A stretch of 64,000 nt of DNA from Kondoa subrosea (lineage: Eukaryota): the NCBI GenBank assembly GCA_039545335.1, contig BCIN01000007.1:682001-746000 (forward strand), in the 5' to 3' direction. The position numbers and the translations under genes are program-made. The notes beneath the pieces were generated by a model. It saw only the letters and a program-made list of their open reading frames with translations. It was not told the origin of the DNA and ran no database searches. Each line of letters starts with the position of its first letter. The stretch's first letter is position 1. Shown here piece after piece: positions 1-43,208 of the stretch.

Positions 1-319
1 AAGATCAACATATGTTCGATCTTTGGATGAGCAGAGACAAACCTATCCGTCGAGTAAACTTCCCCCGATTCTGGTCTGATATTGGCGAATGCGTATAATA
101 TATGAGTGAGATCCGACGCAGGGATATCTTTTGGGAAATATTTCCTAGCATAAATGCTCCAATCTGACACAAATAGGTACGTGGTAAATGAAGGTCCAAA
201 CATAAAGAAGAAAGAACGAAACTGGTGAAATAGCCTACGTTCCGCTTCATAGTAGAATGTGATATAGATTGAGAGGTAGATGCCTCGGATGATGATTTGG
301 GTTTGCCAAAGAAATGCAT
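1..319 (-). CDS. GH18 chitinase, 5' part (continues off the window edge), no evident signal peptide
   Basis: Spliced translation MKRNVGYFT/NWSIYARKYFPKDIPASDLTHILYAFANIRPESGEVYSTD matches the N-terminal GH18 motif (GYF.NW.IY.R...THILYAFAN). Confidence 0.85.
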
Positions 320-42183: not shown

Positions 42184-42847
42184 TTAGACGCTGCAAGTAC
42201 ATTAGTCCAGTTCAGGCAGGATAAGTATTACGTACGAGGCGAGAATGGTAGAGTCACCAGCATCGGTGATAGTCATGACACTAATCACGTTAAAATGAGT
42301 ATAATTGAATAGCGAAAAAGATAGCTGTTGACTAACCCAACGCGGAAAAGTTTACCGGCAGCTGTTCCAAGAGCGACGTTTGAGCCAGCGTAAAGGTGAA
42401 CAGGGGTCTTGGACAACATGGCGTAGTATTCGAGCTCAGAGCGGCGAAGAGGTTGGCAGTTACCAGATATGAGAACGAGCTTGGCTGTGAGTGAGACGTT
42501 CCTGCATTAGCGTATGCTAATCGCCAGGTCGCTTATGCTCACCCTTGCCAGATCGCATGAGCTTGAGGGTAGATTTGTATCCCAAAGAATATTTGCCAGA
42601 TTCTGTACATCGAGATTAGGAGTAAATTCAAGAGCTGAAAGTCCCGCGAAAGACGCACTGATGGTCAAAGCCAACTTGGTGTTGATGTTGTCCGAGGACT
42701 TCTTGACCTATTAGAAAAAAGCAACGCAGGGGTATATCAGTCCCTCCATCCAACGCTTGCACAGCAGCGCCGACTTCTCAGGGCTGCGTGCATTTTTTAA
42801 TAGGATTAGCGAACCTTCTTGTTTGCTGTTGGTGCAGTAGGGGCCAT
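42184..42847 (-). CDS. RPL30: 60S ribosomal protein eL30
   Basis: [44 protein letters not shown] and ITDAGDS. Confidence 0.97.
42736..42786 (-). promoter_or_regulatory. Predicted kink-turn RNA element in RPL30 intron 1 overlapping the branch point
   Basis: CAGCCC-UGA-GA-AGUC ... GAUG-GA-GGG-A-CUG(AU): C-stem, 3-nt bulge, tandem G.A pairs and extended NC stem. Confidence 0.65.
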
Positions 42848-43208
42848 TTCTGTTAAAGTCAAAGATTAGCAATTGGCTTTTTGAACAAAGTGCATGCCTT
42901 TTCAACAAAGCTCGCTTGCCAATATGCACAGCAGAGCTCGTCGAGAAGACATAGCACAGACGGAGTACTCACTTGATGATATGAAGGTTGACTTACAGCG
43001 AAAGCAAGAAGATTTCGAATTTTCGCAAAGAGAAGAGCGACGCCACATTTCCCCATTTCCTGATCCACGAAGCAGCAGTACAGCAGGTCTGAAACTCGCC
43101 TAAGGCAACTCAATGTATGTATCTGCATGTCATAAGACAGCAATGCTAATCTTTCCTCTATCTCAGCCAATCTCTCGCACACAGCTTAATTGAAGCCCTT
43201 TACCAATC

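Follow-up and report, generated by a model that had tools for sequence, protein, structure and literature searches.

In budding yeast, the product of RPL30 controls the splicing of its own message, the standard example of such feedback by a ribosomal protein; this example stands nearly alone, and the block to U2 exerted from the 5′ splice site has been explained only indirectly. The K-turn of the Saccharomyces cerevisiae RPL30 pre-mRNA is the subject of several studies (Eng and Warner 1991; Vilardell and Warner 1994; Chao and Williamson 2004; Macias et al. 2008, as cited in PMC11585973), and L30 bound to exon 1 and the 5′ splice site is described as permitting U1 binding while blocking U2 (PMC11585973). 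Li and Breaker (2017) described a second fungal element next to L30 genes, the rpl30 motif, a hairpin with a conserved purine-rich internal loop reported in 47 examples from 26 fungal species, mostly in 5′UTRs, for which L30 binding in the service of autoregulation was proposed; the species names visible in that account are filamentous ascomycetes (PMC5640933). In Schizosaccharomyces pombe, the paralogues rpl30-1 and rpl30-2 are described as cross-regulating (Lemieux et al. 2011, as cited in PMC4695336). Here we examine an RPL30 gene whose first intron can fold into a K-turn that includes part of its putative branch motif. The gene lies in a 64-kb stretch of DNA, referred to below as the window.

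The RPL30 gene and its first intron

The gene occupies the minus strand and is predicted to comprise six exons (Table 1). Its identity as eL30 is indicated by the 48-residue peptide of exon 4, which matches Pfam PF01248 (E 6e-9) and whose best PDB matches are all eL30, including the yeast protein of the L30e–mRNA complex (entry 1T0K). The predicted model has five GT..AG introns of 107, 56, 58, 56 and 45 nt. Relatives were collected by a metagenome scan with the exon-4 peptide, which yielded 80 RPL30 loci (denoted L followed by a number). The peptide spanning the exon 1/2 junction, ...NKK|VKKSS..., runs uninterrupted in L001 and thereby places the ends of intron 1 at 42814 and 42708. Read-through translation of the retained intron gives 13 codons followed by a UAA stop. 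The window has a G+C content of 45%, and its eL30 is closest to those of the G+C-rich fungal contigs L001–L003. Upstream of the start codon, a possible 123-nt 5′UTR intron was noticed at 42850–42972 (minus strand; GUGAGU at 42972, AG at 42851–42850), which contains branch-like GCUAAUC and UUUAAC and ends directly 5′ of the AAAUGG start.

Table 1. Coordinates of RPL30, its first intron and the parts of the K-turn element (window numbering; minus-strand features are read from the higher to the lower coordinate)
Feature	Position	Strand	Basis
RPL30 (eL30) coding region, 6 exons, 113 codons	42184..42847	-	predicted gene model, Pfam and PDB matches
RPL30 exon lengths: 33, 49, 60, 148, 45, 7 nt			predicted gene model
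RPL30 exon 1, ATG plus 10 codons	42815..42847	-	sequence, gene model
RPL30 intron 1, 107 nt, GUUCGC...AAUAG, phase 0	42708..42814	-	gene model
In-frame UAA reached upon intron 1 retention	42806..42808	-	read-through translation
Whole K-turn element, intron positions 29–77	42738..42786	-	pairing; best covariance-model match in gene region
C helix, 5′ strand CAGCCC	42781..42786	-	pairing
3-nt bulge UGA, L1–L3	42778..42780	-	pairing; shared with class B and most class A copies
Bulged-strand G A A (1b, 2b, 3b) of the G·A, A·G, A·G pairs	42775..42777	-	invariant in alignments A1 and A3
NC helix and hairpin: G·U, U-A, C-G, bulged G, 6 bp, 8-nt loop	42748..42774	-	
Non-bulged strand G G A (3n, 2n, 1n)	42745..42747	-	invariant in alignments A1 and A3
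C helix, 3′ strand GGG-A-CUG; CUG shared with branch motif	42738..42744	-	
Putative branch motif ACUGAU, branch A 42737	42736..42741	-	consensus assignment

Anatomy of the intronic K-turn

The first-pass annotation of this DNA had singled out intron 1 as about twice the local norm, had drawn a K-turn within it and had placed the CUG of the best-placed branch motif, ACUGAU, in the C-stem. All of this is borne out: the other four introns measure 45–58 nt, the K-turn can be drawn over 42786..42738 with coordinates, sequence and pairs in agreement, and CUG enters the C helix through G31–C75, A30–U76 and C29–G77. In intron numbering, the C helix consists of C29–G77, A30–U76 and G31–C75, then, past a bulged A74, C32–G73, C33–G72 and C34–G71; the bulge is U35 G36 A37, and the core runs through G38·A70, A39·G69, A40·G68, G41·U67, U42–A66 and C43–G65 into a hairpin of 6 bp (positions 44–49/58–63) with an 8-nt loop. 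G64, unpaired in the NC helix, was absent from the earlier description.

The secondary-structure parts of a standard K-turn are thus in place, namely a 3-nt UGA bulge followed by tandem G38·A70 and A39·G69, a Watson–Crick C helix (CCC/GGG, with C34–G71 at −1) that is extended by CAG/CUG across A74, and an NC helix that continues past the G·A pairs. With C–G at −1b·−1n and A·G at 3b·3n (A40·G68), the element fits the published rules for a standard foldable K-turn and shares both positions with Kt-7, which folds in Mg2+ alone (PMC5061560). From the A·G at 3b·3n, folding in Mg2+ in the absence of protein would be predicted, which would make the window element less switch-like than a regulator is expected to be (PMC5061560). 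As a separate observation, a 13-nt stretch of the NC hairpin (42758–42770, GCGCUGCUGUGCA) recurs with 12/13 identity at 42925–42937 in the putative 5′UTR intron; this direct repeat may be chance or the trace of a local duplication.

Three YURAY motifs occur in intron 1, at positions 6, 75 and 101. The first is 6 nt from the 5′ end of the intron and the last 3 nt from its 3′ end, leaving CUGAU at position 75 as the only usably placed one; its branch A precedes the 3′ splice site by 29 nt, and the K-turn fold takes up the CUG of this motif as the outer part of the C helix. No yeast-like K-turn was seen at the 5′UTR/AUG of the gene, and none downstream of its stop codon.

The same core in other fungal RPL30 genes

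The K-turn core was found in the RPL30 gene of 56 of the 80 metagenome loci, in two topologies that we term class A (9 loci) and class B (47 loci). Class A is built as in the window, with the bulged strand first, then the NC hairpin and the non-bulged strand. It sits in an intron inside exon 4 in L073, L074, L075 and L077 and 3′ of the stop codon in L001, L002, L003 and L051, the loci closest to the window by exon 4 (98% for L001); L052 carries three copies 3′ of the stop codon, two of them within intron-like units. The L052 copies are arranged in tandem ~260–560 nt past the start of the exon-4 match, and the two units, which begin GCUGAA(A)GCAG|GUAYGU and end CAG with CUAAC or CUGAC between, resemble 3′UTR introns.

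Class B (24 distinct sequences) has the circularly permuted form UGGAG-C..G-CUGAGAAGGUCC, in which the non-bulged strand precedes the bulged one and the element is closed by its NC helix, and it resides in the intron before exon 4, a position homologous to window intron 3 and not to intron 1. The element reads ...GGGAC-UGGA-GC(loop)GC-UGA-GAAG-GUCCC..., with the core C|UGA|GAAG plus UGGA|G as in the window and a C helix of only 2–3 bp, capped by a loop of 3–5 nt. The UGA bulge is present in 47/47 class B loci and in 8 of the 10 class A copies. A composite class B pattern had 47 matches in the gene region (109,625 nt), 3 in the remaining sense sequence (177,044 nt) and 1 in antisense (286,669 nt). 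The class A pattern is looser (11 matches from 9 loci in the gene region, that of L058 doubtful; 5 outside it and 5 in antisense), so that its helices are needed for conviction.

A yeast-type arrangement, with the K-turn strands in the 5′UTR and at AUG|GUCAGUAU, was found in L069–L071. By eye, a K-turn-like pairing across the 5′UTR and start codon can also be drawn in L073, L074, L075, L077, L080 and L060 (ACC-G-GA-GCGC ... GCGC-AAA-GA-U-GGC, ~150–250 nt upstream of the exon-4 match), which we liken to that of L069–L071. L060 is cut at the contig start, and L010 is cut such that only the 3′ half is present. No element was seen in 18 loci (L006, L053, L056–L059, L061–L068, L072, L076, L078, L079), some of which are cut, some intronless and some non-fungal. 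An intron at the codon of window intron 1 is absent from all sampled relatives.

Several of these loci merit separate mention. The RPL30 contigs L006, L058 and L060 are without introns, L006 corresponding to the spliced junction of L007/L009-type genes; they may be transcript-derived contigs or retrocopies. L076 retains only a degenerate class B 5′ half (GGGGACUGGAGCGUGAGG, 5–32 nt upstream of the exon-4 match) with the reading frame disrupted upstream, and is probably a pseudogene. L078 and L079 start with CCCCAAAA repeats, like the telomeres of ciliate nanochromosomes, and their eL30 genes lack the fungal K-turn core. In the ascomycete-like introns of L073, L074, L075 and L077, the bulged strand CCC-UGA-GAAG has a second possible partner, an upstream CU-GA-GGG, with which it would form a mutually exclusive, loop-capped K-turn (L073 2501+159..186, L074 651+174..199, L075 2501+171..196, L077 2501+173..200), the NC pairs of which are compensatory (AUC/GAU in L073 versus CUC/GAG in L074/L075); the two alternatives could constitute a two-state switch. 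In 14 class B loci (e.g., L013 1276–1355), exon 3 GCC-CUG-AAG could pair with intronic CUGGA-GCG into a window-like K-turn with a C helix of 3 bp, probably a by-product of conserved coding sequence.

Conservation and covariation

Among the 43 distinct class B loci, identity reaches 95% and 98% in the two K-turn strands, compared with 34% in the 25 nt upstream and 35% in the 15 nt past the branch motif. The first-pass annotation had proposed a covariation analysis of intron 1 across related fungi; here, covariation was assessed in the elements at other gene positions. Class B shows no compensatory changes, the sequences being too conserved for covariation; as its loci belong to related lineages, they do not amount to 47 independent observations, and what they document is strong conservation and not proof of structure. 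Both helices of class A, which comes from more distant lineages, do covary: 8 of 13 pairs changed on both sides in alignment A1 (10 copies from 8 loci, L077 being omitted as its element is identical to that of L075), and the three purine–purine pairs G·A, A·G and A·G are invariant. The covariation score was reached by 0 of 500 shuffles and has a clear maximum at register 0, shifted registers scoring far lower. The window element was left out of this count because MAFFT misregistered its 3′ strand, where UGGA occurs twice (alignment A2).

A covariance model built from 10 window-like copies recovered the window element weakly: 10.6 bits, rank 3 and E 0.81 across the whole window. Confined to the gene region, the element ranked first with E 0.01, still a weak score, followed by others at E 0.026 and 0.038. 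The differing hairpin length and the two bulged bases of the window element lower its score. The match at E 0.038 (8.9 bits; 42516–42557, minus strand) falls in intron 3, which is homologous to the class B host intron; it has no G·A core and is probably due to chance.

Position of the element relative to the branch site

In the intronic copies, the element nearly always lies directly 5′ of a branch consensus. YTRAY starts 0–6 nt past the helix in 42 of the 47 class B loci, for which the composition null is 8%; the remaining loci have CUUAC at the same place (four) or CUGAC at +12 (one). This spacing is kept although the 3′ splice site may lie anywhere from 22 to 166 nt from the helix. Likewise, ACUAAC follows the C helix by ~5–6 nt in L073, L074, L075 and L077. 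The window fits as the extreme of the pattern, its putative branch motif overlapping the C helix. The idea of the first-pass annotation, that a wholly intronic K-turn would let eL30 occlude the branch site, is therefore in keeping with what other loci display. Its description of this as a candidate new mode goes too far, since U2 recruitment is already the step blocked in yeast, such that only the geometry would differ (PMC11585973), and since the rpl30 motif has already been reported from 26 fungal species (PMC5640933).

A real eL30-binding K-turn might nonetheless serve without hiding the branch site. It could mark the RNA, whether unspliced or already excised, for nuclear retention or decay, titrate eL30 or act as a structural aid to splicing; in the last version, 49 nt would be looped out and the 5′ splice site brought near the branch site, with eL30 merely modulating the outcome. 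Such roles would suit L001, L002, L003 and L051, which keep the K-turn after the stop codon and far from an obvious branch site, the second K-turn-like pairing drawn by eye around the AUG of ascomycete-like loci, and the control of S. pombe rpl30-2 by intron retention and nuclear decay (PMC4695336). On these terms it is hard to see why the K-turn should keep so close and so length-independent a distance from the branch consensus, as it does in 46 of 47 class B introns and in L073–L077, unless its position beside the branch site matters. We consider a role other than hiding the branch site unlikely, though well worth keeping in view. The post-stop copies imply that the motif, if functional, can work without a nearby branch site and is not tied to one mechanism; that they occur in the closest relatives is the main ground for caution, because no sampled relative has intron 1.

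Specificity of the core and the possibility of chance

Chance could account for the K-turn fold taken alone. In 125,652 nt of RPL30 loci, a loose K-turn descriptor matched 259 times in sense and 260 times in antisense, and a stricter one matched 48 times over the two strands of the window; generic descriptors are too unspecific and carry no weight. The K-turn is absent from the minimum-energy fold of intron 1 (−32.9 kcal/mol, z −2.2), and forcing it yields −26.0 kcal/mol, a cost of 6.9 kcal/mol in a nearest-neighbour model that gives no credit for G·A pairs or protein. Without protein, the minimum-energy fold places the branch motif in a hairpin loop of 10 nt, whereas the K-turn fold pairs its CUG.

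The core sequence is far more discriminating. CUGAGAAG...UGGAG occurs once in the window, inside RPL30. The extended core CTGAGAAG N8-38 TGGAG has a single match, at 42781..42744, with 0.21 expected over both strands of the window, which scales to ~0.001 for the ~700 nt of the RPL30 sense strand. The 13 specified core bases are those of the RPL30-specific core of other fungi and form a single site in the 128 kb of searched strand. The fungal RPL30 core C|YGA|GAAG ... YGGA|G is accordingly present in the window, flanked by complementary C and NC helices.

A chance look-alike, that is, a K-turn-compatible sequence without any regulatory role, would account for the abundance of generic descriptor matches, the modest covariance-model score, the divergent minimum-energy fold and the lack of an orthologous intron among the sampled loci. 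It would have to produce the 13-base core, which is unique in 128 kb and barely expected within the RPL30 transcript, with both helices in the right register around it, in an intron twice as long as its neighbours. We judge this improbable.

Box C/D K-turns are not known to have CUGA on the bulged strand, and the window element, which does, has the opposite arrangement. At the gathering score, Rfam returned no match in the whole window; in the RPL30 region at E up to 10, it returned only a chance archaeal sRNA match (E 7.5), and in loci L001, L004, L052, L070, L074 and L075 nothing except a tRNA. The marks of a box C/D snoRNA or kink-loop RNA were looked for and not seen, there being no Rfam match and, by eye, no C box in the intron. 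That the element serves another L7Ae-family ligand, Snu13/15.5K or Nhp2, as an intron-derived small RNA or a general K-turn brake on excision, is very improbable given the specificity of the motif for RPL30 across many fungi, the absence of an Rfam snoRNA or other family match and the placement of CUGA, even though several L7Ae-family proteins recognise K-turns (PMC5061560) and mammalian 15.5K-bound intronic K-loop RNAs are described in a 2026 preprint as suppressing excision of their host introns (10.64898/2026.08.03.742641).

A proposed branch-site roadblock

That the window K-turn is genuine and linked to eL30 is very probable, as the same core occurs in RPL30 of 56 of the 80 loci. We infer that eL30 is the ligand, where the branch point lies, that U2 is blocked and what becomes of the unspliced RNA; surplus L30 probably blocks splicing of its own message through the K-turn. 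The full proposal, in which a genuine autoregulatory K-turn of the eL30 type sits at the branch site in intron 1 and blocks U2, seems to us somewhat better than an even bet.

During spliceosome assembly, U2 snRNP docks on the stretch 5′ of the branch point. Free eL30, in excess over ribosome assembly, would bind the K-turn on the nascent pre-mRNA and fix the C helix, whose outer three pairs would hold the CUG of ACUGAU. The resulting protein–RNA knot would cover ~45 nt directly upstream of the branch adenosine, so that U2 snRNP could neither pair with the branch site nor dock there. With intron 1 retained, translation would end after 13 codons and the output of eL30 would drop.

A broader reading, which we hold tentatively and rate just short of even, is that eL30 feedback in Dikarya rests on one portable K-turn cassette, C|UGA|GAAG ... 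UGGA|G, redeployed or reinvented in at least six places, with the branch-site roadblock as a common fungal mode. These places would be the 5′UTR plus 5′ splice site, the 5′UTR plus AUG, the first coding intron (the window), the intron before exon 4, the intron inside exon 4 and the post-stop region, there in part within intron-like units. Any reinvention may have proceeded under the constraint of the binding preference of eL30. The cassette may come in two circularly permuted topologies, its intronic copies always lying immediately upstream of the branch point, where U2 docks, and the window may be the extreme case, with the branch motif inside the C helix; the roadblock, and not the yeast 5′-splice-site structure, may then be the common fungal mode of eL30 action.

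If this holds, eL30 feedback would be widespread in fungi and its usual geometry simpler than that of yeast, a small protein–RNA knot beside or on the branch site. The loci would provide a natural series of variants, differing in position, strand order, hairpin- versus loop-capped form and intronic versus post-stop location, for asking how near a roadblock must sit to stop U2. They would also supply a compact signature for annotating regulated RPL30 introns and an example of a regulatory RNA module that can relocate within a gene while its core is kept.

Comparison with known systems

Within the literature searched, which lay outside subscription papers, we found no RPL30 K-turn at a branch site, no basidiomycete RPL30 K-turn, no permuted form and no post-stop copies. 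Among more distant systems, archaeal L7Ae is described as repressing its own gene through a 5′-leader K-turn that mimics its rRNA site, a likeness in logic; it differs in that the repression is translational, with no splicing involved, and in that those K-turns are predicted to be unfolded without protein (PMC6298567), unlike one with A·G at 3b·3n. The mammalian kink-loop RNAs resemble the window element as intronic K-turns or K-loops that suppress host-intron excision together with an L7Ae-family protein, but they are box C/D-type, 15.5K-bound and genome-wide, and do not represent gene-specific feedback by the encoded protein (10.64898/2026.08.03.742641).

Fungal RPL30 offers closer parallels. 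In S. pombe, L30 is likewise reported to influence RPL30 splicing negatively, the intron-retaining RNA being degraded; that control acts between paralogues and through Mmi1/Pab2-dependent nuclear decay, and no branch-site K-turn appears in the account as available (PMC4695336). The rpl30 motif agrees with the window at the level of its published description: the window element too is a hairpin with a purine-rich internal loop in a fungal L30 gene. The ascomycete-like loci L073–L077 probably carry this motif, which the accessible part of its account neither terms a K-turn nor relates to a branch site (PMC5640933).

The nearest counterpart is the K-turn of S. cerevisiae RPL30. Both elements lie in the transcript of the eL30 gene itself (in the window, according to the predicted gene model), and the published descriptions of the yeast element share with the window the K-turn in the gene's own pre-mRNA, the tandem G·A/A·G pairs and a purine-rich bulge of 3 nt. 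An unspliced and untranslatable transcript would likewise be expected in both, with U2 recruitment as the step blocked in yeast (PMC11585973). The yeast element draws on the 5′UTR/exon 1 and the 5′ splice site and has the AUG in its NC helix, whereas that of the window is wholly intronic and starts 28 nt past the 5′ splice site; the window element has neither the helix at the 5′ splice site and AUG nor the U·G that yeast has at 3b·3n, which is A·G here (PMC5061560). It further departs from the yeast element, as published, in its UGA bulge, its opposite strand order and its overlap with the branch motif. Judged by its sequence, the window element would be a yeast-like RPL30 regulator in kind, one that differs in its location and in its 3b·3n pair.
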